Source: a virus
Lineage: Duplodnaviria; Caudoviricetes
Virus record (IMG/VR): IMGVR_UViG_3300017909_004016
Coordinates: 1-35,360 of that record
Direction: 5' to 3' (one strand)
DNA length: 35,360 nucleotides
Shown here piece after piece: positions 926 to 14,113 of the stretch; the stretch's first letter is position 1; every line of letters starts with the position of its first letter. The position numbers and the translations under genes were made by a program. The notes under the pieces are model-generated. The model did not search any database. It worked only from the letters and a program-made list of their open reading frames with translations, and had not been told where the DNA came from.

Positions 926-1343
926 CCTATTTGTTTTACCCTTAGTTTTTTTAACCGCCCCTCTCACATTAGATGATGGCCATCAAATTAAAGCCCCTCT
1001 TATTCAGGGCGGGCAAGTGAGCCCTGATACCGGGTTTCTTGTTTCAATCGGTGATATTGCTGATATACAAGCAACTCTTAACGGCAACTCATCTTTAGTA
1101 AGAATTGCTGAAATTAAAGATCGATTCGAGCAAGAGCAACGGCGATCAAGTGAGAGATGTAATGAGCGATTGAAAAACCTCATCAGTAAATTAGATGAGA
1201 GTGCATTGTTAAATGAAAGATTAAAGAGTAAGCTAGAAAAAGAGCAAGTTTTTTCAAAACGGCTGATTTATGGGGCAACTATAACCGGCTTTGTGCTTTC
1301 AGGTCTTTCTATTTATCTATATGCAAAAGGGGGCTCTCAATGA
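918..1343 (+). CDS. Exported/membrane coiled-coil protein; spanin-like candidate
   Basis: Hydrophobic N-terminal signal-like segment, central coiled coil and C-terminal TM (LIYGATITGFVLSGLSIYLY). Overlaps both neighbours. Confidence 0.4.
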   Translation: MISLFVLPLVFLTAPLTLDDGHQIKAPLIQGGQVSPDTGFLVSIGDIADIQATLNGNSSLVRIAEIKDRFEQEQRRSSERCNERLKNLISKLDESALLNERLKSKLEKEQVFSKRLIYGATITGFVLSGLSIYLYAKGGSQ

Positions 1344-1573
1344 GTGATATGATTTCAATTTCAGCAATCGCAAGCTTATTCGGCGTTGTTGGTGTAATCT
1401 TCACTATCATGAAAGAGAGGGCTCAACATGAAAGAGAGATGGGGCGTATTGAAGCCGAAACGGCGGCTTTAAAGGATCGGCTTGATAGACTTGATCAAAG
1501 ATCAAATAGAATTGATGAAAAGCTTGAGCAAATTATTGAAACCTTAGGCGAGCTCAAAGCAACGCTAAGATAA
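1340..1573 (+). CDS. Small single-TM coiled-coil protein (holin/XhlA-like architecture)
   Basis: ATGA overlap with the upstream gene. N-terminal TM followed by heptad repeats (LKDRLDRLDQRSNRIDEKLEQI). Confidence 0.45.
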   Translation: MSDMISISAIASLFGVVGVIFTIMKERAQHEREMGRIEAETAALKDRLDRLDQRSNRIDEKLEQIIETLGELKATLR

Positions 1574-1592: not shown

Positions 1593-3593
1593 ATGAAAAT
1601 GAATGCCGAGGCGTTGGCCCTCGTTGCATTTGCCGCTCAGTATTCTCATGAGACTGAGAGCGGGCGAGAAACCCCAACTCAGGCAATGCAACGGGTAAAA
1701 AATATGCACCTCCAATTTTTTAAAGAAGAAGTGCACAATCATATAAATGAAGCGTTTGAGGATGTATTTGCAAAGCGTGTTTATCCATCACAACGCTCAA
1801 CTCAATTCGGCGGCAAAGCAATCTTAGATCGCAATATGCGTATTTATAACTGTACCGCCTCATATTGCGATCGGCCCCGCTTTTTTGCTGAATACCTTTG
1901 GTTGCTTTTGTGCGGTTGCGGTTGCGGGGTGAGCGTACAAAAGAGGCACGTCAATCAATTACCTGATCTCATCTCAAAAGAGGCTCAATCATCTCGCCCG
2001 GGGCGAGAGCATAAAATTATTGATTCTATTGAGGGTTGGTCGGATGCTGTACTTGATCTGATGAACTCTTACTTACCGCAATTTAAGGGCGATTCTGATG
2101 AAGAGGTTTTGTTTGATTATTCATTGATTCGGCCCCTTGGCTCTCCAATTTCAAGCGGGGGTAAAGCCCCGGGGCCCGAGCCCCTAAGAGTTGCCATTGA
2201 AGCGGTAAGGGATGTTTTAAAAAATGCGGTTTATTTAGATCAACTCAAGCTCAGGCCGATTGATTGTTTTGATATCTGTGCTCATTTATCAAAGGCGGTT
2301 TTGAGCGGGGGGGTACGCCGCTCAGCATCGATCATGCTTTTTGATAAAGATGATCATGAAATGCTAACCGCAAAAACTGATGATTGGTTTAGTAATTATC
2401 CAAACCGAGAAACCGCAAATATATCAGCGGTTATGCTTGGCAAGCCGAATCAAGCTGAGGTTTCATCAATGCTCGATTGGGCTCGAGCTTGGGGCGAGCC
2501 CGGGCAATATTGGATTGATTCACCTGAAATCATGACCAACCCCTGCGCCGAAATTGGTTTATTTCCTCAACTGCAGTTTGATGGAGAATCAGGGCGTTAT
2601 AGAGATTATATTTTACCTCATCAAATGAACTCAGTTGCGAATATCAGCGGTTGGCAGGCTTGTAATTTAACCGAGATCAATGTTGCTCAATGTAAATCCG
2701 TTGGCGAGTTTATCAGGGCTTGCCGCTCGGCGGCGATCCTTGGCACTCTTCAATCAATGTACACTCAAGAGGGGTATTTACTCTCAGTGAGTAGAATGAT
2801 TTTAGAGCGAGAGAGGTTGCTAGGTGTATCTCTTACCGGCATTTATAGTAATCCCTCAATTGCTCTTGATCCTGATGTATTAGAGCATGGTGTAAGAGTA
2901 ATCAGGCAAACGAATATTGAAGTTGCCAAGATGTTGAATATTGATTTTGCATCTCGGCTCACTTGTATCAAGCCAAGCGGCAATACTTCAACGGTTGCCG
3001 GTACATCGCCGGGGGCTCACCCTTGGCACGCTTATCAATATATTAGAACGATTAGACTGAGTTTGATGAATCCGGTTTATAAGTATTTATGCGAAAAAGT
3101 GCCGGATGCTTGCACTCAACTCAATCAAGATACCGGCTTGGTTTCATTTGCTGTACAAGCCCCGCCGGGCTCGATTGTAAGGGCTGATTTAGATGCCGTA
3201 TCTCATTTAGATGATATTGCTCTTTTACAACGGCATTGGGTTGGCCCCGGCTCATCCGATGGCTATAATAAAACCCCGGCGGTATCTCACTCAGTATCAT
3301 GTACTGTTACCGTACAGCCTGATGAATGGCAAAGTATTGCGGCTTGGCTCACTCAACACATGAATGAGAATGAAGGGCCTCAACGAATCAAAGGCGTTTC
3401 ATTCCTCTCATACTTTGGAGATCATTTATATGAGAATGCCCCGTATCAAACTGTACATGATGATTCTCTTGAGCGATTTAGAATGATTGCCGATTTAGAG
3501 ATTGATGAAGATGAGTTGTTTAAAATTGTTGGGTACTCACCTGATCGAGCAAAAGAAGCAGCTTGCTCAGGCGGGGCCTGTTTATTAGAGTAA
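1593..3593 (+). CDS. nrdJ: Ribonucleotide reductase, probably class II (adenosylcobalamin-dependent, monomeric type)
   Basis: RNR motifs YNCT, GCGCGVS, GGVRRSA, TNPCAEI, CNLTEIN, TCIKPSGNTS and a C-terminal CSGGAC redox pair. No beta-subunit gene is present in the genome. Confidence 0.88.
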   Translation: MKMNAEALALVAFAAQYSHETESGRETPTQAMQRVKNMHLQFFKEEVHNHINEAFEDVFAKRVYPSQRSTQFGGKAILDRNMRIYNCTASYCDRPRFFAEYLWLLLCGCGCGVSVQKRHVNQLPDLISKEAQSSRPGREHKIIDSIEGWSDAVLDLMNSYLPQFKGDSDEEVLFDYSLIRPLGSPISSGGKAPGPEPLRVAIEAVRDVLKNAVYLDQLKLRPIDCFDICAHLSKAVLSGGVRRSASIMLFDKDDHEMLTAKTDDWFSNYPNRETANISAVMLGKPNQAEVSSMLDWARAWGEPGQYWIDSPEIMTNPCAEIGLFPQLQFDGESGRYRDYILPHQMNSVANISGWQACNLTEINVAQCKSVGEFIRACRSAAILGTLQSMYTQEGYLLSVSRMILERERLLGVSLTGIYSNPSIALDPDVLEHGVRVIRQTNIEVAKMLNIDFASRLTCIKPSGNTSTVAGTSPGAHPWHAYQYIRTIRLSLMNPVYKYLCEKVPDACTQLNQDTGLVSFAVQAPPGSIVRADLDAVSHLDDIALLQRHWVGPGSSDGYNKTPAVSHSVSCTVTVQPDEWQSIAAWLTQHMNENEGPQRIKGVSFLSYFGDHLYENAPYQTVHDDSLERFRMIADLEIDEDELFKIVGYSPDRAKEAACSGGACLLE

Positions 3594-4277
3594 TTCTTTC
3601 AACTCTCTCTCTATTTGATCCGGCTTCATTCCCATCTCTTGCAGAGATCGAGTGAATATATACTTGAGGAACTCTTCGTTTGTTTTTGATTCATGTTTAG
3701 AGGGCCCTTTAATTCCATGTTTATCAAGCCAATACTTAACCGAGTAATACGAAAAAGGCCGCCCGGTACGGGGGCTAAGAATGCCCTCTTGCTCGCAAAT
3801 ACTCACAATTTTAGCAACACTATATTTTAATTTAGCAAGCTCTCTCGCTCTTTCAATGAGTTGAGTTGGCGGGTTTTTAGCATTTGCCAATTTAGGATTT
3901 ACTTTAATATTATATTCATAAAGCCAATACCTAACCGAGTAATGTGAAAAAGGCCGCCCGGTACGGGGGCTAAGAATGCCCTCTTGCTCGCAAATACTCA
4001 CAATTTTAGGCAAATTGTAATTTAATTTAGCGAGCTCTTTTACTCTCTCAATGAGTTGAGTTGGCTCTTTCATTTTTCTTCGTTTGTTTTTGATTTTAAT
4101 ATTATATTTATCAAGCCAATACCTGACTGATCCTTTTGAAAAGGGCCGCCCGGTACGGGGGCTAAGAATGCCCTCTTGCTCGCAAATGCTCACAATTTCA
4201 GGCAAGCTATAATTTGATTTAACCAACTCTTTTACTCTCTCAATGAGTTGAGTTGGCTCTTTCATAATATTAGCCAT
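3585..4277 (-). CDS. DNA-binding protein with three tandem recombinase-domain-like HTH repeats
   Basis: Three ~64-aa units PTQLIER.KEL....Y....IVSICEQEGILSPRTGRPFSxxSV(R/K)YWL. They resemble the 'S...IA..LN.EGI.T.RG..W....V..IL' DNA-binding domain of large serine recombinases. No catalytic domain. Confidence 0.65.
   Translation of the reverse strand: MANIMKEPTQLIERVKELVKSNYSLPEIVSICEQEGILSPRTGRPFSKGSVRYWLDKYNIKIKNKRRKMKEPTQLIERVKELAKLNYNLPKIVSICEQEGILSPRTGRPFSHYSVRYWLYEYNIKVNPKLANAKNPPTQLIERARELAKLKYSVAKIVSICEQEGILSPRTGRPFSYYSVKYWLDKHGIKGPSKHESKTNEEFLKYIFTRSLQEMGMKPDQIERELKELL
3710..4265. repeat. Three tandem ~192-195 bp intragenic repeats
   Basis: The 44-bp block ggccgcccggtacgggggctaagaatgccctcttgctcgcaaat is identical at 3757, 3952 and 4144. 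Confidence 0.95.
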
Positions 4278-5467
4278 TATTTTTTTGAAATGATGGTTTT
4301 AATATATCGAGCCATTGATTGATACTCACCCCAATGATTGGCAACAAGAATCAGTTTTCTCAATTCATCTCGCTCGGTTTCATCAATTTGATCATAATGA
4401 GTATTAAAGAGTTTAATTAGCTCAACTCGCCAAGGCATCGCCTGAGTTTTAACATAAGCGGCAAGGGCCTCTTTATAATCATCATCAATAATCTCAAGCG
4501 AGCAATGTTGATAAAACTCAGAAAACTCTTCAACAAGCGGGCGGGTATCTTCATCTCTAAAATTATTGATTGCCTGAGGATCTTCAAAATTAAAGCCTCG
4601 GGTTGCGAGGGGCCCGATTGAATAAAGATAATGTTGCCGCTCGATCATTTGAGAGGCGTTAAAGCCCTTTGCCTCAAGATTGCGTAAAACTTCCTTAGGG
4701 TTGCCGCCAAACTCTTCAACAAATGTTTGCCAACCCTCAAGCGTTTGAGTTTGCCGCCCGGCGGGGTTTGGCTCGGGCGGTGCCGCCGGTACATTTACAA
4801 CGGCATGAGGAGGGCGAGAGGGTTGAGAGGGGCGAGGTGATTGAGGAGGGCGAGAGGATCGCCGGGCCGGTTTTTCACCATTGGCCATCATGGTTACATT
4901 ATAGATTTCCTCATCATCATCTAACATCATCTCGGCAAGCTCATCGGGTGAATTTGCGGTGCCAATGATCTCAGGAAATACATTGCGACAAATAGCAGTA
5001 AGAGCTCGCTTACCACACATGACAAGCGGCATTTGTTGCCAAGTTGTGCGTTTAGCAACATCTCGCAAGATCGCATCTTTCATGGTATAAACCCATTCAT
5101 GTACCGGCGGTTGCAATCCATACTCTTTCGCAATCTCAAGCTCATCGGTACGCATTGCAACATATCGAATACCAACTTGCTCAGGGTTGTTTTTCCAATC
5201 GGTTTGCCCGGGGTTAATGACCTCGCATTTCAAAACGGCACAAAGCTTTTTTCCTGATGTTGGGTCAACCCAAGCTCGCACAATACCGCTCATTGCATCG
5301 GCATTTAAAGCGGGCTTACCCTTTAGACAATAGGTTTGAGCAATGCACGCCAATGGATTATAATTGAAGAGATGGCCAAATGTTAAAAAGCATTTGATGT
5401 TATTATCATAATCATGTTGGCTTGTTGAGTTTTGCCGGATAATTTCTTTTTGTTGATCAGTAATCAT
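4277..5467 (-). CDS. recT: RecT-like single-strand annealing protein with Pro-rich linker and C-terminal extension
   Basis: Motifs NPLACIAQTYCLKGKPALNADAM and TWQQMPLVMCGKRALTAICRNVFPEIIG...DEL are typical of the RecT/Red-beta-like superfamily. TATGGAGAAT RBS. Confidence 0.7.
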   Translation of the reverse strand: MITDQQKEIIRQNSTSQHDYDNNIKCFLTFGHLFNYNPLACIAQTYCLKGKPALNADAMSGIVRAWVDPTSGKKLCAVLKCEVINPGQTDWKNNPEQVGIRYVAMRTDELEIAKEYGLQPPVHEWVYTMKDAILRDVAKRTTWQQMPLVMCGKRALTAICRNVFPEIIGTANSPDELAEMMLDDDEEIYNVTMMANGEKPARRSSRPPQSPRPSQPSRPPHAVVNVPAAPPEPNPAGRQTQTLEGWQTFVEEFGGNPKEVLRNLEAKGFNASQMIERQHYLYSIGPLATRGFNFEDPQAINNFRDEDTRPLVEEFSEFYQHCSLEIIDDDYKEALAAYVKTQAMPWRVELIKLFNTHYDQIDETERDELRKLILVANHWGEYQSMARYIKTIISKK

Positions 5468-5492
5468 TTTAATTCTCCATAAAGTAAATGAT

Positions 5493-5774
5493 TTAAAGTG
5501 AGTGATTCAAGAGTTTAGAGTTAATATAATCCTCCTCAGAGATTGTAAGAAGGCGAGAAAAATCGAGTACAACTTGCTTTAAAAGGCCGCCGCTTGTTTT
5601 AGAGAATTTTGAGACTAGTTGTTGCTCAAAATTGAGATGATAAAAACCATAGGCATCAATGAGCTCAATGAGCTGATCAACTGATTCAATCTCTTGATCT
5701 TCAACCAAGGGCTCAAAATCTTCATAATTGATTTGCAAGCTTACACACACAGATAAATCAGTAAAATTAATCAT
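5493..5774 (-). CDS. Hypothetical protein (93 aa)
   Basis: ATG at 5774 overlaps the end of the upstream gene in the leftward operon. The longer 5861 start would overlap that gene extensively. Confidence 0.6.
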   Translation of the reverse strand: MINFTDLSVCVSLQINYEDFEPLVEDQEIESVDQLIELIDAYGFYHLNFEQQLVSKFSKTSGGLLKQVVLDFSRLLTISEEDYINSKLLNHSL

Positions 5775-5922
5775 TAGTTTGCTCAACTTTTGCTTGAGGG
5801 CCATCAATTGGGGCCGTTGGATCGCAATTTGAATCAGCCCAAGCCCACGCATAAAGGGCAATCAGTAAGCCGATAATTTGAGGAATTGAAGCTTTAATAT
5901 CTTCTCTTGCATAATAATCCAT
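5767..5922 (-). CDS. Small single-TM protein (51 aa)
   Basis: AAGGAG RBS precedes ATG at 5922. Hydrophobic segment IPQIIGLLIALYAWAWA. Confidence 0.65.
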   Translation of the reverse strand: MDYYAREDIKASIPQIIGLLIALYAWAWADSNCDPTAPIDGPQAKVEQTND

Positions 5923-5926
5923 TTGT

Positions 5927-6142
5927 TTACTCCTTTTTGAATTGATCAGCATTGTATTCAATGCCGGTTAATTTAGTTGCAGCCTCGGCAATTGCCTCGG
6001 CGGTTGTTGGTTTGGCGTTTCGATTGCCATTCACAATGCGAGAGAGCCCCGAGATTGTAATACCCGCCTCATTAGCAAGATGGGTAAAAGTATAACGGTT
6101 TGCTCTTAAATCTCGTTTTAGTTGTTCTCTGAGAGTTTTCAT
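5927..6142 (-). CDS. XRE/Cro-family helix-turn-helix regulator
   Basis: YTFTHLANEAGITISGLSRIVNGNRNAK is a typical XRE HTH. It is the first gene of the leftward operon. Confidence 0.85.
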   Translation of the reverse strand: MKTLREQLKRDLRANRYTFTHLANEAGITISGLSRIVNGNRNAKPTTAEAIAEAATKLTGIEYNADQFKKE

Positions 6143-6198
6143 TTAAATCTCAATCTCTCCATAATTTGAATGAATTGATAAAAACATATCTTAAATTA

Positions 6199-6221
6199 TT
6201 TGTCAAGAAATAATTGACAAA
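6199..6221. promoter_or_regulatory. Inverted repeat of back-to-back TTGACA boxes between divergent operons (promoters/operator)
   Basis: TTTGTCAA-GAAATAA-TTGACAAA lies in the AT-rich gap between the HTH gene and the initiator gene. The -10 matches are weak. Confidence 0.6.
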
Positions 6222-6268
6222 AAGATTAAAATAAAATAATTTGAGTTTATTAACTATGGAGAATCAAC

Positions 6269-6808
6269 ATGATTGATACATTGAAATTAATCAGATCAGT
6301 GATGAACTCAGATTTAAAACCGCCTGAGAAAATCACATTGATCGCCTGTATATATAAAGTAAGTTGGCAAAATTGGCGGGCTGATTACCCAATCTCAATC
6401 CAAAGCCTTTGCGATGAATCAGGATTGAGCCGGGCAACTCTTAAGCGAGCTCTAAAATCACTAGAGCAAAAGCAGCTCATTGAGCGGCTCGGTACATCTT
6501 ACCGGGGGGCAACCGGGGCAAGTACACTCTTTGTAAATGCAAATGAAATTATGAAGCAAAATCAGGGGGCTCAATTTGAACCGGGGGGGGCTCAAGATGA
6601 ACCGGGGGCGGTTCAAGATGAACCGGGGGGGGCTCAAGATGAGCCGCAAATCTATCCAAGTTACTCTACACCAATATACTCTAATGAGGGGGGCTCGATC
6701 TGTACCCCTGAATCTAAACCTAAATCAATCTCTCTTGAGGATCATGTAAGAAGAGCTCAAATTGAGCATGAGAGATGGATTAAGCAAAAAAGGAGAATCA
6801 CATTATGA
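6269..6808 (+). CDS. Phage replication initiator (lambda O-like; N-terminal winged HTH, internal iterons)
   Basis: wHTH motif YPISIQSLCDESGLSRATLKRALKSLEQKQLIER, internal 21-bp repeats, and position directly upstream of a DnaC-like ATPase. Confidence 0.8.
   Translation: MIDTLKLIRSVMNSDLKPPEKITLIACIYKVSWQNWRADYPISIQSLCDESGLSRATLKRALKSLEQKQLIERLGTSYRGATGASTLFVNANEIMKQNQGAQFEPGGAQDEPGAVQDEPGGAQDEPQIYPSYSTPIYSNEGGSICTPESKPKSISLEDHVRRAQIEHERWIKQKRRITL
6565..6648. repeat. Four 21-bp palindromic iterons, putative replication origin
   Basis: GGGGGCTCAAGATGAACCGGG-type units at 6565, 6586, 6607 and 6628, each containing the dyad GG(C/T)TCA-nnn-TGA(A/G)CC. A degenerate fifth copy lies at ~6689-6708. 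Confidence 0.85.
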
Positions 6809-7752
6809 ATAATTTAAAAGAGGCTTTAAAACCTATTGAAGATATGCTTAAGCAATTGAGAGAGAATTGCCCCCCCTCAATGCCAATTGAAAAACCTCAA
6901 TCAATCAATGCCGGTGATCTTGAAGATTTTGGTTTGATCTCTCAAAGTGTTGTTGCCGGGCAACCGCAGCTTAATGTACATTTTCTTGATGCTTGCGAGT
7001 ATAACGGCTGTACCCCGAGTGATTCAGGTATGCATTCAGTTTCATATATTGATGAGCATATTGATTTCATTCAACCAATGGTAAGAGATGATCGGGGCAA
7101 ATGGATTCGCAAGATTGATGAGAATAAAGAGCCCGTTTTTGAGCAAATCATTCGGCGTTATTCAACTGCCAAAAAATGCCCGTATTGCGGGGCGGTTAAT
7201 GACAAGCTGCTAAAATTGAAAAACTCAGGTATTGGGGCCGATTGCGTTGATAAGCATTTTGCTAATTATGAGTTTGAATCAGATTTACTCAAAGCAAAAG
7301 TTGAGCAATTTATTGCCGGTGATTTACGGGGCGGCATATTATGGGGCCAACCCGGTAACGGTAAAACTCATCTACTCTCAGCAATTGCAAGAGAGTTGGT
7401 CTTTCAGGGCAAATCTGTTCGTTATGTATCTCATCAGCATTTACTTGAAACAATCAAACGCTCTTTTGATGGCAATGAGATTGATCCTCGGTTGAGATGG
7501 CTAGATAGTAAGAGTTATATTTTATTTGATGAGCTCGGTTTTTGCCCCCGTACCGATTGGGCCCGGCAAACAACTAATGAGCTCATTCATGCCGCTCATG
7601 CCGCCGGCGTTAAAATTTTATTTGCATCTAATCTCTCACCTCAACAACTCAAAAGTAAATTGCTCGATATGAGAACATCAAGCCGAATGGGCGAGATTGT
7701 TGGCCAATTTGTATACAATATGAGGGGGGCTGATCGCCGGGGCGGTTTTTAA
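6805..7752 (+). CDS. dnaC: DnaC/IstB-like helicase loader ATPase
   Basis: Walker A GQPGNGKT, Walker B ILFDELG, ASNL sensor, upstream CPYC, C-terminal GADRR. ATGA-coupled to the initiator. Confidence 0.85.
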   Translation: MNNLKEALKPIEDMLKQLRENCPPSMPIEKPQSINAGDLEDFGLISQSVVAGQPQLNVHFLDACEYNGCTPSDSGMHSVSYIDEHIDFIQPMVRDDRGKWIRKIDENKEPVFEQIIRRYSTAKKCPYCGAVNDKLLKLKNSGIGADCVDKHFANYEFESDLLKAKVEQFIAGDLRGGILWGQPGNGKTHLLSAIARELVFQGKSVRYVSHQHLLETIKRSFDGNEIDPRLRWLDSKSYILFDELGFCPRTDWARQTTNELIHAAHAAGVKILFASNLSPQQLKSKLLDMRTSSRMGEIVGQFVYNMRGADRRGGF

Positions 7753-7775
7753 AAGAATATATTTTTGATTTATGG

Positions 7776-7784
7776 TGTTATTAT
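7776..7784 (+). promoter_or_regulatory. Extended -10 promoter element for candidate sRNA
   Basis: TG-T-TATTAT matches TGnTATAAT with one mismatch. The predicted start is at ~7790-7791. Confidence 0.5.
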
Positions 7785-7789
7785 AAAAG

Positions 7790-7866
7790 TGCCGATTCTC
7801 CTTTTGTTGGCATTCTCCATAAAGGCAAGGCCCGCCCATTTGCGAAAATCGGCGGGTTTTGTTTAT
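7790..7866 (+). ncRNA. Candidate small RNA carrying two anti-RBS seeds
   Basis: The 5' hairpin TGCCGA/TTGGCA exposes TTCTCCTTTT, a second seed reads ATTCTCCATAAAG, and a terminator follows. The seeds are complementary to early-gene RBSs. Confidence 0.55.
7827..7866 (+). terminator. Intrinsic terminator
   Basis: CCCGCC-C-ATTT-(GCGA tetraloop)-AAAT-C-GGCGGG followed by TTTTGTTTAT. Confidence 0.85.
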
Positions 7867-8126
7867 TTATCAAGCTTTGCTCTTACCTCAGCAATCCTCA
7901 TCCTTTCTTCATTCACAATCTCCCATATTTTAACCCGCCCCTCTCGGCAGTTGGTTTCAATGCCCTCAATGTTGCTCTCAAGTTTGGTAAGCCGTTGGCA
8001 AATTGATTCAAGCTTATCAATCCGAGATCGAATTGCGGCAAGTTGATTCGCCATATACCAAACGAAAGAAAGAACCGTTGTTAAGAGTGTAATTAACTCA
8101 AAAATAATCTCACTTGTTAATTGCAT
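7863..8126 (-). CDS. Small single-TM coiled-coil protein, isolated on the minus strand
   Basis: GAGG RBS and ATG start. TM segment IIFELITLLTTVLSFVWYMA followed by heptads. Confidence 0.7.
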   Translation of the reverse strand: MQLTSEIIFELITLLTTVLSFVWYMANQLAAIRSRIDKLESICQRLTKLESNIEGIETNCREGRVKIWEIVNEERMRIAEVRAKLDK

Positions 8127-8175
8127 TTTATTACCTCATTTTTTTTAGGTTATATCATTTCTTGAAAAATAATAA

Positions 8176-8188
8176 TACTTGACAAGTA
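8176..8188. promoter_or_regulatory. Palindrome containing TTGACA (operator/-35 candidate)
   Basis: TACTTG-A-CAAGTA between divergent genes. It shares CTTGACAA with the reverse complement of 6200-6207. Confidence 0.55.
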
Positions 8189-8213
8189 AATAAAGGTTAG
8201 GTGTGTTTATTAT

Positions 8214-8282
8214 ATGCCCGCCGTTATTCTTTAATTTCTTTTCAGTTTAGATAATTATTGGTTTATTTTTTTAGGCGGGCAT
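8214..8282 (+). promoter_or_regulatory. 9-bp GC stem closing a 51-nt U-rich loop directly 5' of the ssb RBS
   Basis: ATGCCCGCC (8214-8222) pairs with GGCGGGCAT (8274-8282). Confidence 0.55.
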
Positions 8283-8298
8283 TTATGGAGATCTAAAA

Positions 8299-8634
8299 AT
8301 GCTAAATCACATTACTCTGATTGGTAATCTTGGGCGAGATGCCGAGGTACAAGCCGGCGGCAAAATGCTGAGAGCTCGAATTGCAACAACTGAGCGATAC
8401 AAAAATAAACAAGGCGAGTATGTTGAAAGTACAGAATGGCATACTATTAAATATTGGAGTGATTACGCCGGGCAAATGATCGAGCGATATAGAAAAGGTG
8501 TACGGGTTGTTGTTGTTGGCTCAATCGCCTATGAAGAGTACAACGGTAAAAAAGAAGCAATTGTTAAAGCTAAAACAATTAAAACTCTTTCATCGGCACT
8601 CAATCGCAATACTGATCAATGGGATAATCAATAA
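8299..8634 (+). CDS. ssb: Single-stranded DNA-binding protein (short, OB-fold only)
   Basis: MLNHITLIGNLGRDAE, IATTERYK...ESTEWH and KGVRVVVVGSI are classic SSB motifs. Confidence 0.95.
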   Translation: MLNHITLIGNLGRDAEVQAGGKMLRARIATTERYKNKQGEYVESTEWHTIKYWSDYAGQMIERYRKGVRVVVVGSIAYEEYNGKKEAIVKAKTIKTLSSALNRNTDQWDNQ

Positions 8635-8646
8635 AAGGAAAAAATT

Positions 8647-8808
8647 ATGAAAAAAGTAATTGATAGATTACCTAAAAGATTTCAATTTACTATTCACAAT
8701 CTCATTGCTCATCCATTAATGGAAATCTTTTATCAACTCGGTTTGAGTAATTTGGCTACATGGATTCATGAGAGCACTTGCCCCTCAGATCCGGATCAAT
8801 CTCTTTAA
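8647..8808 (+). CDS. Small hypothetical protein (53 aa), absent from the ORF track
   Basis: AAAGGA RBS. Translates as MKKVIDRLPKRFQFTIHNLIAHPLMEIFYQLGLSNLATWIHESTCPSDPDQSL. The stop overlaps the next start (TAATG). Confidence 0.8.
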   Translation: MKKVIDRLPKRFQFTIHNLIAHPLMEIFYQLGLSNLATWIHESTCPSDPDQSL

Positions 8809-9062
8809 TGATTTGCGATTTTTGTTTAGTTGATAATCGATCAGTTACGCAATTATCAATCAGTATCACTGAGTACAATGAAATCACTCATGAGCCGAGC
8901 AATGTTTGCTCAACGTGCCTGAATTGTATTAGAGTTGAATTGATAGGAGTGAGAGATCTAAGAAGGGTTTCAACCTCATTCAACTTTAACAGAGATTTAC
9001 ATAAGAGTTTTATAGATGCCAAGAAAAGCAAAAAGTCAAAAAACAGACAAAATAAAAAATAG
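8808..9062 (+). CDS. Putative zinc-binding protein
   Basis: TAATG coupling sets the start at 8808. Two CxxC motifs (CDFC, CSTC) and a basic C-terminus. Confidence 0.55.
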   Translation: MICDFCLVDNRSVTQLSISITEYNEITHEPSNVCSTCLNCIRVELIGVRDLRRVSTSFNFNRDLHKSFIDAKKSKKSKNRQNKK

Positions 9063-9486
9063 AGAAAAACATTGCCCGCTTGTTTCAACTGCAATGATGA
9101 GCGTATTTGATCATATAGCTAAAGGCCATCATATAAAATATGCTTGCATTTTGGGCGGCGTTGGTAAATCTGATTTTTATCGGTACATTGATGAGGCTCG
9201 CAATGAGAAACCGGTAAACTATGCAACCCCTGATCAGCAAAAACAGTTTCTAGCAAATGTTGAGTTGGCAAATGCTTCATACGTTGATAATCGTCTTGAT
9301 GCTCTCAAGGATATGAGAGAGGGCAATTTAAACCCCTCAATCTTTAGGCAAGTGCAATGGGAGCTCTCAATAAAAGATAATGAGGTTTACAGCCAAGCCG
9401 CCCGCACTCAACTCGAAATCAAGAATCAAACCAATCCACTTTTGGAAGTTTGGCAATCAATACTTAATCAAAAGGAAGAAGATTAA
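9016..9486 (+). CDS. Terminase small subunit-like HTH protein
   Basis: IAKGHHIKYACILGGVGKSDFYRYI...FLANVELANA...WELS pattern and 156-aa length fit the HTH-type TerS family. It is not adjacent to terL. Confidence 0.55.
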   Translation: MPRKAKSQKTDKIKNREKHCPLVSTAMMSVFDHIAKGHHIKYACILGGVGKSDFYRYIDEARNEKPVNYATPDQQKQFLANVELANASYVDNRLDALKDMREGNLNPSIFRQVQWELSIKDNEVYSQAARTQLEIKNQTNPLLEVWQSILNQKEED

Positions 9487-9489
9487 TAT

Positions 9490-10542
9490 ATGGAGAGATT
9501 AACACAAAAAAGGATGAATTTTTTACATGATATTACTCTCAGTGATTTAGAGAGATGTATCATGAGCAATGAGCGTTTTTTTTGGGAGCATTCAACCGAG
9601 GTAATTTTGCAGTTGCAAAAACCTGAGAAGATGCCCGGGCGAGATCTATTGATTTTCAGGGGGCCAACTCAAACCCCTGATGACAATGGCCGGCTAAGAA
9701 ATACAAAAGCGTATCAAGGAGATCTTGAGCCCCTCGCCAATATCGAGCTTAAAACATGTACAACCCCGGCAAATATAAACCGTCAACTCTTTGAGGCAAC
9801 ATCAGATTGCCTGAGGTTTGGCAGTTGGGGTATTAGAGGGTATAAAGATCGGCCTATGCCGTTTAAATATAATATCGGCATTGTATGCTATATTGATCAA
9901 CATGAGGCCCTTGAGTTTGCCGCCGTTTCAATTAATTATCGTCAAGAGGTTTATCAACTCGGTGAGAATCCTGATGTTAAAATTTTTAATACATATTACA
10001 GCATGAGCGAGTTATGCAAGGGCATCAATTTTCTAATCAATGTAATTTCAAATGATCAAGGGGCCCCGGATCTCATTAACTCTCTCGCTAAATATGATGG
10101 CACTAATTTGCAAATTGATTTTAATCGATTCGCTCTTGATCCTCGGGTTAATCAATTTAGCTCATTGCCCTCGCCTGAAATTGAAGAGCCGCCGCCCGAG
10201 CCTATTCATGATCAAACTGAATTAGGCGAGCCGCTGCCACTGCTTGATACACCGCCCGCCGAGCGTACAAAGATCGAGCGAGATGTTGAGGCATCTAAAC
10301 TCACTCAACGCACTAAAGATTTTTTTGCTCTATTGTACCCAATCATAAAAGAAAATGGCCAAACATTTAAACTTTATGAATTAGAAGAGCAATTCGATTT
10401 ACATTTAAAAACAATCAGGCGCTATTTAGATTTTCTTGAAATCGCCGGGTTTATACATTTAGATATGATTAAGAAAAAAACGGGCTCAAGCCGGGCCCGA
10501 TTAACTCAAATCTATATTGAATTGAATATTGTGAATGTATGA
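9490..10542 (+). CDS. Hypothetical protein: PD-(D/E)xK-like N-terminus, Pro-rich linker, C-terminal winged HTH
   Basis: GRDLLIF...NIELKT, then PSPEIEEPPPEP, then FKLYELEEQFDLHLKTIRRYLDFLEIAGFI. Confidence 0.5.
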   Translation: MERLTQKRMNFLHDITLSDLERCIMSNERFFWEHSTEVILQLQKPEKMPGRDLLIFRGPTQTPDDNGRLRNTKAYQGDLEPLANIELKTCTTPANINRQLFEATSDCLRFGSWGIRGYKDRPMPFKYNIGIVCYIDQHEALEFAAVSINYRQEVYQLGENPDVKIFNTYYSMSELCKGINFLINVISNDQGAPDLINSLAKYDGTNLQIDFNRFALDPRVNQFSSLPSPEIEEPPPEPIHDQTELGEPLPLLDTPPAERTKIERDVEASKLTQRTKDFFALLYPIIKENGQTFKLYELEEQFDLHLKTIRRYLDFLEIAGFIHLDMIKKKTGSSRARLTQIYIELNIVNV

Positions 10543-10742
10543 AACCTGAGCATTTAAATGAGCATTTAAACGAATTAGCCCAATGTGTATCCGATGGATT
10601 GGATATAAGAAAAGCATTGAAGCGGTGCCCGCCCCAATTGATCAAGCAACATCCAAGGCTTGAGTTTATTGTTGAGGGCCTGTATGAGCTCGCTCATTGG
10701 TTTGAGCCGATCTTAGAAGATGATGAAGATGATGAGGCTTAA
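10539..10742 (+). CDS. Hypothetical protein
   Basis: ATGA overlap with the upstream gene and an acidic C-terminus. Confidence 0.65.
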   Translation: MKPEHLNEHLNELAQCVSDGLDIRKALKRCPPQLIKQHPRLEFIVEGLYELAHWFEPILEDDEDDEA

Positions 10743-10814
10743 TATTCACTAAAGAGCCAATCGATCAAATACGCAAATATAACAATCACTGTAAATACTA
10801 ATAAATCATTTACC

Positions 10815-11045
10815 ATGGCAAGATACCTCACTACTCAAGATCTGATTTTTCATAATCCTAAGTATCAACGTTGGCCTGAGTTGCCAAGCGGTTTTTTTAC
10901 TATACCCGCCGGCTCTCAGGTGTATCGGTGCAAGCGTACTCAACAAGAGGTACTCAAGTTTAAAAAGCGAGGTGTTGATTTTTGGGTAGTAAGTTGGTTT
11001 GGCCAACGGATTTATTTAGAAAGTAAATATATCAAGCGAGTATGA
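10815..11045 (+). CDS. Hypothetical protein
   Basis: Co-oriented ORF filling the gap. The RBS is weak. Confidence 0.55.
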   Translation: MARYLTTQDLIFHNPKYQRWPELPSGFFTIPAGSQVYRCKRTQQEVLKFKKRGVDFWVVSWFGQRIYLESKYIKRV

Positions 11046-11061
11046 GTAATTAAAAGAGGAA

Positions 11062-11161
11062 TTAAAAAAAGCCCCTTGAGAAGATACATAAACAGTCTTC
11101 AAAATATTTACTCTACATGATTAAAAATAATGTAAATAAAAAGGCAATTCTCTCGGGGCTT
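11062..11161 (-). terminator. Terminator-like structure for terL with an unusually large structured loop
   Basis: AAGCCCC..GAGAA (11069-11082) pairs with TTCTC..GGGGCTT (11148-11161), and the T7 run on the minus strand corresponds to A7 at 11064-11070. It lies between convergent genes. Confidence 0.45.
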
Positions 11162-11198
11162 GGTATTCAATCTTACTGATTGATCTCAAAAGATCAAG

Positions 11199-12566
11199 CT
11201 AAAACCGCCCGGGCAACTTTTTCTTTAAAGCTCGGTTGCGTTTCTCCCTTACCTTGCCCCGTTTAACATCAACCGGCTTATCTCTCCAATGCCAATTGAT
11301 TACATGGTACCTGAGAGCATCAATGCAATGCTCTAAATCGTTTTTCTTGGGCTTTCCATTCTGATCAAAGGCATAAGTAGTAATACCCCTTGAAAGAGAG
11401 TGAGAAGACGAATTAAGGCCCTTATCCCATAATTCTTTGCTTAGGTACATTTGCCCCCGCTCAAAAACATCTCTTAAGCGAGAGAGCCCGTTGAGTATAT
11501 CAACCCGTATCGGATCGGTTGTATATCTGATCGGCATACCCAAGCCCGCCGGGGGCAATGCCCGCCCCATTGTACGAAATGCACTCAGGGCGGTTTGATC
11601 TGATCGAGCGGCCCCGGCTTTATCACCGCTCGCCGCGTCAATCCATATAAAATCCTGATGAGGGGCTAAATGCTGATGAGCCCGGGGCCAAACCTTTTTA
11701 AGCATGAGTTTAGTGAGCTCGCTTATTGTTATCTCGGTTGGCGTAAACTCTAAATGAATTACATCAGCATTAAGAGAGTCATCATGAGAGATTACTAAAA
11801 CCGCCGGCTTTCTAAAACCCCAATCTATTGCTAAGTAAGTACTCATCTCAGGCGAGTATTCCCAATCGGCTAAAACGTGTTTAATTGGATCAAATGTTGA
11901 TACCGCCAAGCCCGCCGGCGGCGTTGGCTTATTATTAATCATTGCCTCATATTCCTCGGCGGGCAATGTTTTCTTAGCAACATCAAACCACTCTTTAGAG
12001 AGATTTTCTTGATTTACGAAAGAGGTTGCTCGAATCACCGCCCCGCCAATCTCCTCAGTTGAGTTTACCCACCAAGCCCCCCAAGTTGGCAACCCGCAAA
12101 TGATCAAGCGGGGGCCAATATCCTCAGCCGATCTAATTCGCCCGAGGGCTTTATGCATAACCTCATCTTGCATTGTTTGAGCCTCATCAATACAAGCAAA
12201 CCCGCAGTCTATACCCTCAAGGCTATTTTGATCAGCCGAGCGAGTGCCGGGGCGAAAGTAAGCCCGACACCATATAATATGGCCATTGGGGGCAACCCAT
12301 TTATTTTCAAGTGAATTATAAGACCAATCCACACCGGTTAGGCGGCTAGTCCATTCGCTTAAAGAAGGATGTACAACCGTTCTATAACGGGGGGCCGAAT
12401 CAGTAATATATAAACTTGCACCGCCGGGGTGAGCCATTGCATGAGAGATAATTGCCATTGAGAGGGCGGTTGTTTTACCCGAGCCCCAACCGGCAACAAC
12501 CGCAATTATCGGCTCTTTCAGGTACGCCGATAATAGTTTAGTTTGTAATTGATTAGGTTTTATCAT
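11199..12566 (-). CDS. terL: Terminase large subunit
   Basis: Walker A GWGSGKT, Walker B ACIDE, nuclease motifs AIDWG and DLEHCIDALRY. Confidence 0.93.
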   Translation of the reverse strand: MIKPNQLQTKLLSAYLKEPIIAVVAGWGSGKTTALSMAIISHAMAHPGGASLYITDSAPRYRTVVHPSLSEWTSRLTGVDWSYNSLENKWVAPNGHIIWCRAYFRPGTRSADQNSLEGIDCGFACIDEAQTMQDEVMHKALGRIRSAEDIGPRLIICGLPTWGAWWVNSTEEIGGAVIRATSFVNQENLSKEWFDVAKKTLPAEEYEAMINNKPTPPAGLAVSTFDPIKHVLADWEYSPEMSTYLAIDWGFRKPAVLVISHDDSLNADVIHLEFTPTEITISELTKLMLKKVWPRAHQHLAPHQDFIWIDAASGDKAGAARSDQTALSAFRTMGRALPPAGLGMPIRYTTDPIRVDILNGLSRLRDVFERGQMYLSKELWDKGLNSSSHSLSRGITTYAFDQNGKPKKNDLEHCIDALRYHVINWHWRDKPVDVKRGKVREKRNRALKKKLPGRF

Positions 12567-12592
12567 ATTTATAAGAAGTCCTTTCGCATATC

Positions 12593-12627
12593 CCCCCGCC
12601 TTGGTTTAGGGTGAGCCAAGGCGGGGG
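12593..12627. promoter_or_regulatory. Strong GC hairpin in the divergent terL/portal gap
   Basis: CCCCCGCCTTGG (12593-12604) and CCAAGGCGGGGG (12616-12627) form a perfect 12-bp stem, followed by CTTTATAT on +. Confidence 0.7.
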
Positions 12628-12706
12628 CTTTATATCGCTTTTAAAAATAGTTATGATTTTTATAGAAAATTATATATACTATAGCTAAATAAGTCTTGAG
12701 GATAAA

Positions 12707-14113
12707 ATGAAAAGAAGAGTCTCAAAGCATCTCAAAGCACAAAGCCCCTCTTTTAGAGAGCGGGGTATTTCAGGCACTCAACTCAATAGCGGGTATATCA
12801 CCGGGTATGAGAAAAACCCCTCCTTTACCGACCCCGCCCGATGGGCTGAGGAATGTATTGAGATGTATCGTACGGATCCGGTTGTACGCCGATCTTTCAA
12901 CATACTCAAGCAAACTTTACTTAGTGCCGCTTGGCGATGGGTACCCGCTGATCAAGATGATGAGGATTGTTGCGAGTATGCTCGATATGCTAACGAATGT
13001 TGGGGCCTTGATGGATATTCCGGGCAAATGTCTCAATCTTGGGAATCACAATTAAACTATTTATTTGAGTACCTAAAGAACGGATTCAGGGCAGCTGAGG
13101 AAATATACAAGATTGATCAAGATGAGTTTGGCCGTACAATGATATTCTTAGACCACTATGCCGATCGAGAGCCAACCTCAATTTATAAGTTTATCTCAAG
13201 CGATGATCAAAACTTAGACGGTATTATGCAATGGGGTGTAAATGGATTGCATCCCGATCCAATACCCGCCAATAAAATGATTCTTCTTACCCTTGGTAAA
13301 ACCGGCTCAAATTTCGCCGGCGATGGCGGTTTTTTTCGCCCTTGTCATTTTTATTGGAGATCTAAACAACGGGCTCTCTCTTTGCTGATGATAGGCATTG
13401 AGCGGTTTACCTCACCAACTCCGATTGTAAAGGTTGATCGATCTCAAGCCGAATCGCTTGGCATGACTGATGAAGATATAAATGCCGCCGTTGATGAAGC
13501 TGAAAGCCAAGCCCAAGCATATACAGCTCATGAGGCGGCTTACTTGGTTACCTCGCCCGCTGTATCGTTTGAGGCATATGGCGGCACCGCCTCGGGTTTT
13601 AATCCTGATATGGCCTTAAGCGTTGTACGCGAGGCTGATCAGCAAATCTCAACTGCATTTCTTGCTCAAATGCTTGAGCTCGGGCGGGTTGGTAGTGATA
13701 CCGGCTCAAGAGCGGTTGGTGAGGTTCATATGAGCCTATTCAGGCGATCAGCCTTGAATATTGCTGATTATGTTGCGAGCGTTGTGAGCGGTAAGGATAG
13801 GAGAGGAGCGGGCACAATTGGCCGTTTGATTAAATTCAATTATGGCAATGTATCGCCCTCTAAATTGCCCCGTTTAACTCATACCGGTTTGGATGTTGAT
13901 GCACTTGCCGAAAGCTTGGCAAGTTTGCCCTTGCTTGTACAATCCTCTCTCTTAACCCCCGATGATGAGCTTGAGCGATTGATTAGGCAACGAGTTGGGG
14001 CGGGCGATTTACCTGAGGAGGCTGAAAGATCGGCAACTGATCGCTCAATGAGCACCGTTGGCAATTCATCGGCCCTTGGTGAATATTTAAAAAGGAGGGT
14101 AAAGAATGGCTAA
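12707..14113 (+). CDS. Portal protein (Mu gp29/DUF935-like)
   Basis: 468 aa, first gene of the head operon. Motifs MYRTDPVV, GFRAAE, IERF..P, DQQISTAFLAQ.L and GSRAVGEVH. Confidence 0.88.
   Translation: MKRRVSKHLKAQSPSFRERGISGTQLNSGYITGYEKNPSFTDPARWAEECIEMYRTDPVVRRSFNILKQTLLSAAWRWVPADQDDEDCCEYARYANECWGLDGYSGQMSQSWESQLNYLFEYLKNGFRAAEEIYKIDQDEFGRTMIFLDHYADREPTSIYKFISSDDQNLDGIMQWGVNGLHPDPIPANKMILLTLGKTGSNFAGDGGFFRPCHFYWRSKQRALSLLMIGIERFTSPTPIVKVDRSQAESLGMTDEDINAAVDEAESQAQAYTAHEAAYLVTSPAVSFEAYGGTASGFNPDMALSVVREADQQISTAFLAQMLELGRVGSDTGSRAVGEVHMSLFRRSALNIADYVASVVSGKDRRGAGTIGRLIKFNYGNVSPSKLPRLTHTGLDVDALAESLASLPLLVQSSLLTPDDELERLIRQRVGAGDLPEEAERSATDRSMSTVGNSSALGEYLKRRVKNG

Follow-up and report, generated by a model that had tools for sequence, protein, structure and literature searches.

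A candidate trans-acting small RNA complementary to early-gene ribosome-binding sites in an uncultured marine phage

Genome setting of the locus

The stretch of DNA analysed here (referred to as the window) is a complete phage record of 35,360 nt with direct terminal repeats; its sequence is present in seawater runs, among which no RNA run was listed (a result that speaks neither for nor against transcription), and the phage is uncultured and marine. A leftward unit consists of an XRE gene, two small ORFs and recT, and a rightward unit contains the replication initiator and dnaC genes, with a convergent 87-aa ORF and ssb on the 3' side of dnaC. Terminase and Mu-like head genes follow downstream of ssb. 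The features of the locus, which lies at the junction behind dnaC, and of its putative targets are listed in Table 1.

Table 1. Predicted features of the RNA locus and the sites complementary to it in the window
Feature	Position	Strand	Remarks
Extended -10-like motif, TG-n-TATTAT	7776-7784	+	Sequence present; no -35
Upstream mimic of the RBS tag, 8/9	7769-7777	+	Would hide seed 2 when transcription reads through from dnaC (prediction)
Predicted small RNA, about 76 nt	7791-7866	+	5' end inferred from the -10 box
5' hairpin	7788-7814	+	9-nt loop holds most of seed 1 (predicted fold)
Seed 1	7794-7805	+	12/12 complement of the dnaC RBS; duplex -17.4 kcal/mol; predicted unpaired 0.75
Seed 2	7812-7824	+	Complement of the recT, initiator, ssb and XRE RBSs (13, 10, 10 and 9 nt)
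Terminator-like hairpin, GCGA loop	7823-7864	+	At the stop of the convergent 87-aa ORF
Convergent 87-aa ORF	7863-8126	-	Function unassigned; kept at the post-dnaC junction across the family
Target: RBS of dnaC-like helicase loader gene (6805-7752)	6788-6799	+	Seed 1, 12/12
Target: RBS of recT-like annealing protein gene (4277-5467)	5472-5484	-	Seed 2, 13/13; duplex -18.2 kcal/mol
Target: RBS of replication initiator gene (6269-6808)	6255-6264	+	Seed 2, 10/10
Target: RBS of ssb (8299-8634)	8282-8291	+	Seed 2, 10/10; directly behind the 9-bp leader stem
Weaker target: RBS region of 71-aa XRE gene (5927-6142)	6156-6164	-	Seed 2, 9/9
Possible target: start codon of ORF 9490-10542	9489-9496	+	8/8
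Possible target: RBS of 51-aa ORF (5767-5922)	5930-5937	-	Seed 1, 8 nt; duplex -9.8 kcal/mol

Five further observations were made on the genome: 1) G-rich direct repeats within the initiator gene (6570-6645, + strand) are likely replication-origin iterons, and the contigs of close relatives break there. 2) The gene for the terminase large subunit (11199-12707) has minus-strand orientation and diverges from the portal gene, with a strong G+C hairpin between the two, whereas they are co-oriented in many relatives. 3) ORF 8647-8808 (region 8594-8808) is missing in close relatives (three runs). 4) ORF 3585-4277 (- strand, 230 aa) encodes a Recombinase DNA-binding domain and a MerR-like helix-turn-helix; a catalytic recombinase domain was not found in it. 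5) ORFs 1340-1573 (+ strand) and 7863-8126 (- strand) are small, with a hydrophobic start and a coiled-coil-like end, and are possibly lysis-related, the former having a weak match to XhlA below the cut-off.

No S24-type peptidase repressor, ParA or CsrA was detected in any of five complete genomes (the window and four relatives), and the statement of the initial annotation that the phage has no CI-type repressor holds as far as tested. Tyrosine integrases and resolvases were found neither in five relative genomes nor among the 42 ORFs of the window, for which PHROGs gave weak partial matches to integrase or transposition proteins with ORF 3585-4277 and the XRE gene. Searches for the host yielded only distant ATPase-domain matches among prokaryote genomes, no match of the capsid protein among cultured phages and a best match of at most 38% identity for the reductase; Atlas and cluster look-ups returned viruses only.

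Complementarity to the ribosome-binding sites of early genes

Six seed matches had been listed in the initial annotation, and all of them were found where they had been placed and with the lengths given. In the whole 35,360-nt genome, seed complements of at least 10 nt occur at the RBSs of dnaC, recT, the initiator and ssb only, i.e. 4 of the 43 gene starts carry a perfect complement of this length. Four starts were reached by none of 5,000 dinucleotide-shuffled controls, nor by any of 20,000 in which both UCUCC cores were held fixed. Since three of the targets share one tag, these amount to nearer two independent matches than four, and because the window alone offers only about two, relatives were examined (see below). 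In a 76-nt scan sliding along the whole genome, four-match segments were confined to the RNA locus, the strand opposite two gene starts themselves and, in one case, the strand opposite portal coding DNA.

Among the 43 starts, the recT and dnaC duplexes ranked as the top two when energies were calculated with RNAduplex, i.e. without accessibility. By duplex energy alone, the non-target starts of ORF 1340, the tail fibre and the head protease (-15.3 to -13.1 kcal/mol) rank among the targets, and the duplex of the 51-aa ORF lies within the non-target range. The recT RBS has no change among the differences listed in two close-relative contigs covering the site; in one close relative, 235 unrelated letters stand in place of the stretch upstream of the XRE gene (6148-6166).

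The leader of ssb (8215-8281, + strand) contains a 9-bp inverted repeat that closes a U-rich stretch of about 50 nt and ends right before the RBS, and an arm of this repeat resembles an arm of the terminator hairpin at the RNA locus. Two other uses of the locus were considered and rejected: a small ORF on the minus strand, as the tags were seen by eye to have no start codon at RBS spacing, and a type I toxin-antitoxin pair with the convergent ORF, with which there is neither overlap at the ORF start nor a seed match.

Predicted structure and conservation of the RNA

The fold predicted for 7776-7870 consists of a hairpin with a 9-nt loop, an open seed 2 and the GCGA-loop terminator (z = -4.3), and none of 200 shuffled sequences was as stable. 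It agrees with the earlier description of a hairpin whose loop exposes most of seed 1. That the features favour the + strand, as had also been proposed, is borne out by the fold energies of the locus (-31.0 kcal/mol for the plus strand versus -23.0 kcal/mol for the minus strand) and by the number of G-U pairs, 6 on the plus-strand fold versus 0 on the minus.

Three contigs of 92-93% identity, probably representing one lineage, cover the RNA element. Each differs from the window in these 79 nt (7788-7866) by one substitution, G7825A, which falls outside both seeds and keeps its stem pair by turning G-U into A-U. The flanks are more variable, with 23 changes in 265 nt versus one in the 79 nt of the element in X5 (Fisher p 0.022) and 17 changes in 217 nt versus one in X6 (p 0.050).

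The two ends of the putative transcript are less clear-cut than initially described. For the terminator, annotated as a GCGA hairpin with a U-tract, the hairpin is clear but the U-tract is interrupted, and a scanner for promoters and terminators reported neither element on the + strand of the window. As for the extended -10 motif, its sequence is present but the -35 position matches at only 2/6, and its 3' half varies among the 92-93% relatives, in which 7781-7787 is the most variable stretch (4-6 substitutions or indels), TG and TA of the motif being kept and the last T not. This variability weakens an internal promoter as a candidate in the window's lineage.

Seed 2 is predicted to be 0.86-0.98 unpaired in the short form. 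When the RNA is folded from the dnaC stop, 7770-7775 pairs with seed 2, which is then 0.16 unpaired, seed 1 remains at 0.75, and 7781-7787 falls in an unpaired linker. This suggests that a dnaC read-through form would hide seed 2, which the short form is predicted to expose. No change was listed at 7761-7780 in the close relatives.

Covariation of seeds and RBS tags across the family

From a 43-sequence dnaC alignment, 117 loci were fetched, 40 of which (window included) had a dnaC of at least 39% identity with a start, a stop and sufficient downstream DNA. Removal of near-duplicates left 25 loci, and L063 was left out because its contig stops short of the junction, giving 24 members; the junctions of six loci were redefined manually on the basis of ORF coordinates. 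The terminase relatives (L001-L015) do not extend to the RNA locus, and scans of viral contigs with the two-seed pattern, dnaC, a close-clade dnaC alignment and the reductase gave no matches. The family keeps the gene order of dnaC operon, junction and convergent operon, the last often carrying thyX and dCMP deaminase genes as well.

For each member, the RNA strand was picked by folding energy alone and scored by its longest perfect complement in the start region (-22 to +3) of early genes (dnaC, recT, initiator and ssb) and of control genes (terminase, portal, reductase and the convergent ORF). Matches to the early genes of the same phage averaged 8.6 nt, reaching at least 8 nt in 49 of 75 pairs and at least 10 nt in 22, whereas those to control genes averaged 6.0 nt (3 of 62 pairs with at least 8 nt, none with at least 10) and those of the opposite strand 5.6 nt (4 of 75 pairs with at least 8 nt, 1 with at least 10). 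The own-phage mean also exceeded the cross-phage mean of 6.8 nt, with 0 of 100,000 permutations as extreme. When the members were placed in 9 groups by dnaC identity, the means were 8.49 nt (own) versus 6.31 nt (cross), with a permutation p of 1.5e-5; other groupings gave p values of 5e-6 (16 groups), 0.041 (4 groups) and 0.17 (3 groups), the last two tests having little power and p values at the floor for so few groups. Covariation between seeds and RBSs in related phages, which the initial annotation had named as a check, is thus positive across lineages.

At the post-dnaC junction of 19 of the 24 members (window included), predicted-exposed seeds match the early RBSs of the same phage. Lineage tags matched by their own seeds are TATGGAGAAT in the window, GGAGAACAC in L017, L019 and L020, and GGAGAGAAG in L036, L038, L039 and L066. 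Other own-seed matches comprise 15 nt to recT in L058, 12 nt in L044, 13-14 nt in L030 and 11 nt in L023, and separate seeds in L018, L019 and L020 match CAAGGCAC, which lies just before the ssb start and is not a Shine-Dalgarno core. Outside the early genes, 9-nt seed matches occur at the RBS of a gene located about 3.7 kb past the start of dnaC in L017 and L019 and of one located 4.7 kb past it in L020, which bears on ORF 9490-10542 as a possible target in the window.

The five members that do not fit are L040, L041, L042, L053 and L054. No early match of at least 8 nt was found in L041, L042 and L054; the ssb match of L053 sits in the terminator stem, and that of L040 is an A/T run in the tail. 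L053 and L054, both fitting poorly, are the nearest dnaC relatives of the window. A wider scan of L042, L053 and L054 gave scattered matches of 8-11 nt only. Long secondary matches in L036, L156 and L158 lie within coding DNA and were dropped as chance. The junctions of L053 (3571-3813) and L054 (8945-9360), both on the + strand, are longer and structured and have an 11-nt stretch in common, and that of L053 has a duplicated 21-nt element ahead of two RNA-like units.

The 21 members that do not belong to the window's clade carry the RNA on the opposite strand to dnaC, i.e. the cassette is inverted relative to that of the window, and its parts follow in the order of promoter motif, 5' hairpin, open seed and terminator, often with a seed in the terminator loop. 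The window cassette points the opposite way, and the strand favoured by folding and bearing the promoter motif is again the antisense one. That this strand is antisense in both orientations argues against a sense-strand decoy (see below). The homology of the window RNA with the inverted cassettes is positional only, without sequence support. Over 37 matches in the 16 RNAs with an inferable start, seeds are predicted to be 0.76 unpaired versus 0.37 for the whole RNA. In one clade (10 sequences, with L031 added), two-sided changes occur at 7 of the 8 pairs of the terminator stem and the loop is nearly fixed; as the structure was derived from this same alignment, the controls lean in its favour.

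A TGnTA motif lies 75-135 nt before the RNA 3' end in 17 of 24 family members, as it does in the window, versus 2 of 24 on the other strand and 6.0 +/- 2.1 (maximum 13) in 300 shuffles, this distance range having been fixed after the sequences were seen. Most relatives have a predicted promoter of the sigma-70-like type. TTGACT occurs at a spacing of 17 nt from the TGnTA motif in seven members and TTGACA at 16 nt in one; for 3 of 16 motifs, the TGA coincides with the stop codon of the gene upstream. In L032 (2430-2445, + strand) and at the junctions of L039, L036 and L038, the first hairpin has a 3' arm that reads like the 16S rRNA 3' tail. The small RNA of these four loci accordingly contains a perfect Shine-Dalgarno sequence that is not followed by a start codon.

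Comparison with known regulatory RNAs

The Rfam search proposed in the initial annotation placed the RNA in no family: there was no match over the locus at E <= 10 (window 5000-13000) and no gathering match in 8 relative loci. A literature search, with most subscription papers outside its coverage, found no description of this RNA family or circuit. Small RNAs that repress through a seed are a known kind, and the RNA described here would work like one. Features of the trans-acting class are the predicted-exposed seeds complementary to translation-initiation regions and the seed/target covariation (19 of 24 members); as regards a promoter and terminator of its own, the motif is enriched family-wide but variable in the window's lineage, and the U-tract is interrupted.

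The C4 RNA of phages P1 and P7, which has two short exposed pairing elements and a specificity that varies between relatives, and the CI RNA of P4 are phage RNAs that regulate genes of their own phage through pairing; the window RNA likewise has two predicted-exposed elements complementary to transcripts of its own phage. C4 controls ant expression in P1 and P7 (PMC8201110). It acts on the adjacent icd-ant antirepressor operon, for immunity, whereas the targets of the window RNA would be the RBSs of four or more replication/recombination genes in three transcription units, and its locus is the convergent junction after dnaC, not the head of an icd-ant type operon. No antirepressor family was detected among the 42 window ORFs. 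Assignment to the C4 / P4 CI class was rejected, as there is neither an Rfam match nor an operon of the icd-ant type.

Sar of P22 and OOP of lambda are small phage RNAs that lower the expression of a phage early gene and are transcribed opposite their target (in cis). They have one target each, whereas the window RNA is encoded away from its targets and would reach them through seeds of 8-15 nt. Sar blocks translation initiation of ant (PMC12197685). The cis-antisense class (Sar, OOP and type I antitoxins) was rejected for the window RNA, the targets of which are 0.5-2.3 kb away, only the terminator abutting the stop of the convergent ORF. Shut-off of early mRNAs at Shine-Dalgarno sites also occurs in T4, through the RegB endoribonuclease and the RegA repressor, but these are proteins, whereas the reader of the sites would here be an RNA. 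VpdS, PreS and StxS are trans-acting RNAs of 50-90 nt and of phage origin, with host genes, a toxin transcript or mixed sets as targets, and VpdS and PreS are Hfq-bound (PMC12197685); none of them is described in the available text of that source as an RNA that recognises a private tag at the RBSs of a replication regulon.

Interpretation and alternative explanations

We propose, with a probability of roughly 0.7, that the locus encodes a small trans-acting RNA with two exposed seeds that blocks translation of dnaC, recT, the initiator and ssb by pairing over their RBSs. Direct support comes from the complementarity, its confinement to early genes, the covariation between lineages, the predicted exposure of the seeds, the stem compensation in one clade and the promoter motif on the antisense strand; from these we infer the transcription of the RNA, its pairing, the repression and its timing. 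The feature is real and probably a functional small RNA, and the trans-acting reading given in the initial annotation gains support from the covariation, the predicted exposure and the strand on which folding and promoter motif agree.

The RNA could be real and yet act chiefly against host mRNAs, as a general anti-Shine-Dalgarno blocker, with the phage early genes hit alongside. Its seeds centre on UCUCC/UUCCUUU and would be expected to pair with many bacterial RBSs, and cross-phage matches are longer than those to control genes (6.8 nt versus 6.0 nt). This explanation is nevertheless unlikely, for the seed flanks track the private tags of each phage, one of which lies outside the Shine-Dalgarno core, and host genes give no reason for this.

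The seeds might also be RBS copies without a function, which arose by duplication or gene conversion or remained from small genes since lost, and which covary only as recent copies. A route for gene conversion exists, as the phage encodes RecT; L030 has a start codon and a 5-codon ORF behind its tag copy, the junction of L066 holds an inserted gene with a similar RBS, and the seed-2 tag of the window is also found at the dCMP-deaminase RBS of L053. However, the copies sit in loops of compensatorily changing stems, different seeds match different operons while control genes are avoided, and the seeds are more conserved than flanking coding DNA, all of which makes inert copying improbable. Copying of RBSs may be the origin of the seeds but leaves their retention unexplained. 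The related suggestion that the motifs are RBS remnants of a decayed minus-strand gene, raised in the initial annotation, also lost ground.

If instead the opposite strand were functional, its GGA-bearing copies of the tags could titrate a protein that binds RBSs (CsrA/RsmA-like or T4 RegA/RegB-like), thereby relieving the repression of the early genes. ANGGA, the CsrA core, is contained in both tags, about 17 nt apart on the minus strand of the window, and most relatives have a tag copy in a hairpin loop on the sense strand right after the dnaC operon. Such a decoy is very unlikely. The strand picked by folding alone is the antisense strand (8.6 nt versus 5.6 nt) and carries the promoter motif, the minus strand of the window buries the first GGA and loses hairpin 1, and the second seed of the relatives lies beyond the sense-strand hairpin. 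An unchanging host protein would not be expected to keep pace with tags that differ from lineage to lineage, and none of the five complete genomes has a CsrA gene. Decoys of the CsrB/RsmZ type present several GGA motifs in hairpin loops; this class was rejected, as in all 16 predicted RNAs the GGA-bearing strand has the poorer fold and the first GGA is paired in the window. The two-site decoy on the minus strand, which had been offered as the alternative reading, has thus lost ground through the folding and the promoter motif.

It is extremely unlikely that the motifs are DNA operators of the XRE protein or the initiator, with the intergenic copies as further sites, for although both genes carry the motif upstream, the sites are non-palindromic and without exception keep the spacing of an RBS on the sense strand of a gene, and the additional copies fall within predicted RNA loops whose stems are G-U-biased.

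Putative role of the RNA in infection

As a trans-acting repressor, the RNA would most likely be made by the host polymerase from early in infection, would pair over the RBSs and hinder ribosome loading, and would build up behind its terminator to exert, with some delay, a negative feedback bringing the replication/recombination phase to an end in a phage without an integrase or CI-type repressor. The host-type promoter and the terminator suggest a gradual build-up, hence a feedback that comes late and ends the early phase. The dnaC read-through form, exposing only seed 1, would serve for feedback on dnaC. Seed 2, and with it the regulon as a whole, would become accessible to a short form produced either by transcription from the internal promoter or by cleavage within the AU-rich linker. 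Other roles may be repression in a carrier state or exclusion of kin.

A more far-reaching idea, which we put forward tentatively and consider rather doubtful, is that in each lineage a private early-RBS tag and one cognate small RNA form both a timer and a lineage-specific immunity or incompatibility code replacing a repressor protein, that the cassette survives inversion, that the window adds an anti-seed switch between long and short forms, and that the same logic explains the Start-Associated Sequences (SAS) of cluster K mycobacteriophages. The SAS is a 13-bp motif over the RBS of a subset of genes, with one reversed copy per K1 genome located away from gene starts; in the available text of PMC3203893, its function is left open, as is whether its partner is an RNA or a protein. 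As far as that text describes it, it resembles the window system in having a private RBS motif on some genes and a reversed copy elsewhere, although the phages and the sequences are unrelated.

In Anaya (L160 29780-29960, + strand) we found the reversed SAS in a predicted hairpin loop, 0.75 unpaired, within a 385-nt intergenic gap, in a region common to 150 mycobacteriophage records. Of 8 aligned phages, four, which belong to K1, retain the loop, and changes in its stem seem by eye to compensate each other; the reversed SAS is absent in Yuna, replaced in Keshu and Pixie, and altered in Ekdilam without a change of the SAS, so that no covariation was seen in Ekdilam. A reversed copy was not found in the fetched right arm of TM4. 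The reversed SAS of cluster K is thus a partial analogue in culturable phages.

To the question of SAS function, as left in the available text of PMC3203893, the circuit proposed for the window suggests a testable answer. Cultured K1 mycobacteriophages would accordingly offer a partial test system for an RNA circuit of this kind. The shut-off of early replication and recombination in phages is understood mostly through protein regulators. One RNA that silences several operons by way of co-evolving private RBS tags would be a compact switch made of RNA only, and it predicts that each RNA would repress solely the RBSs of its own lineage.
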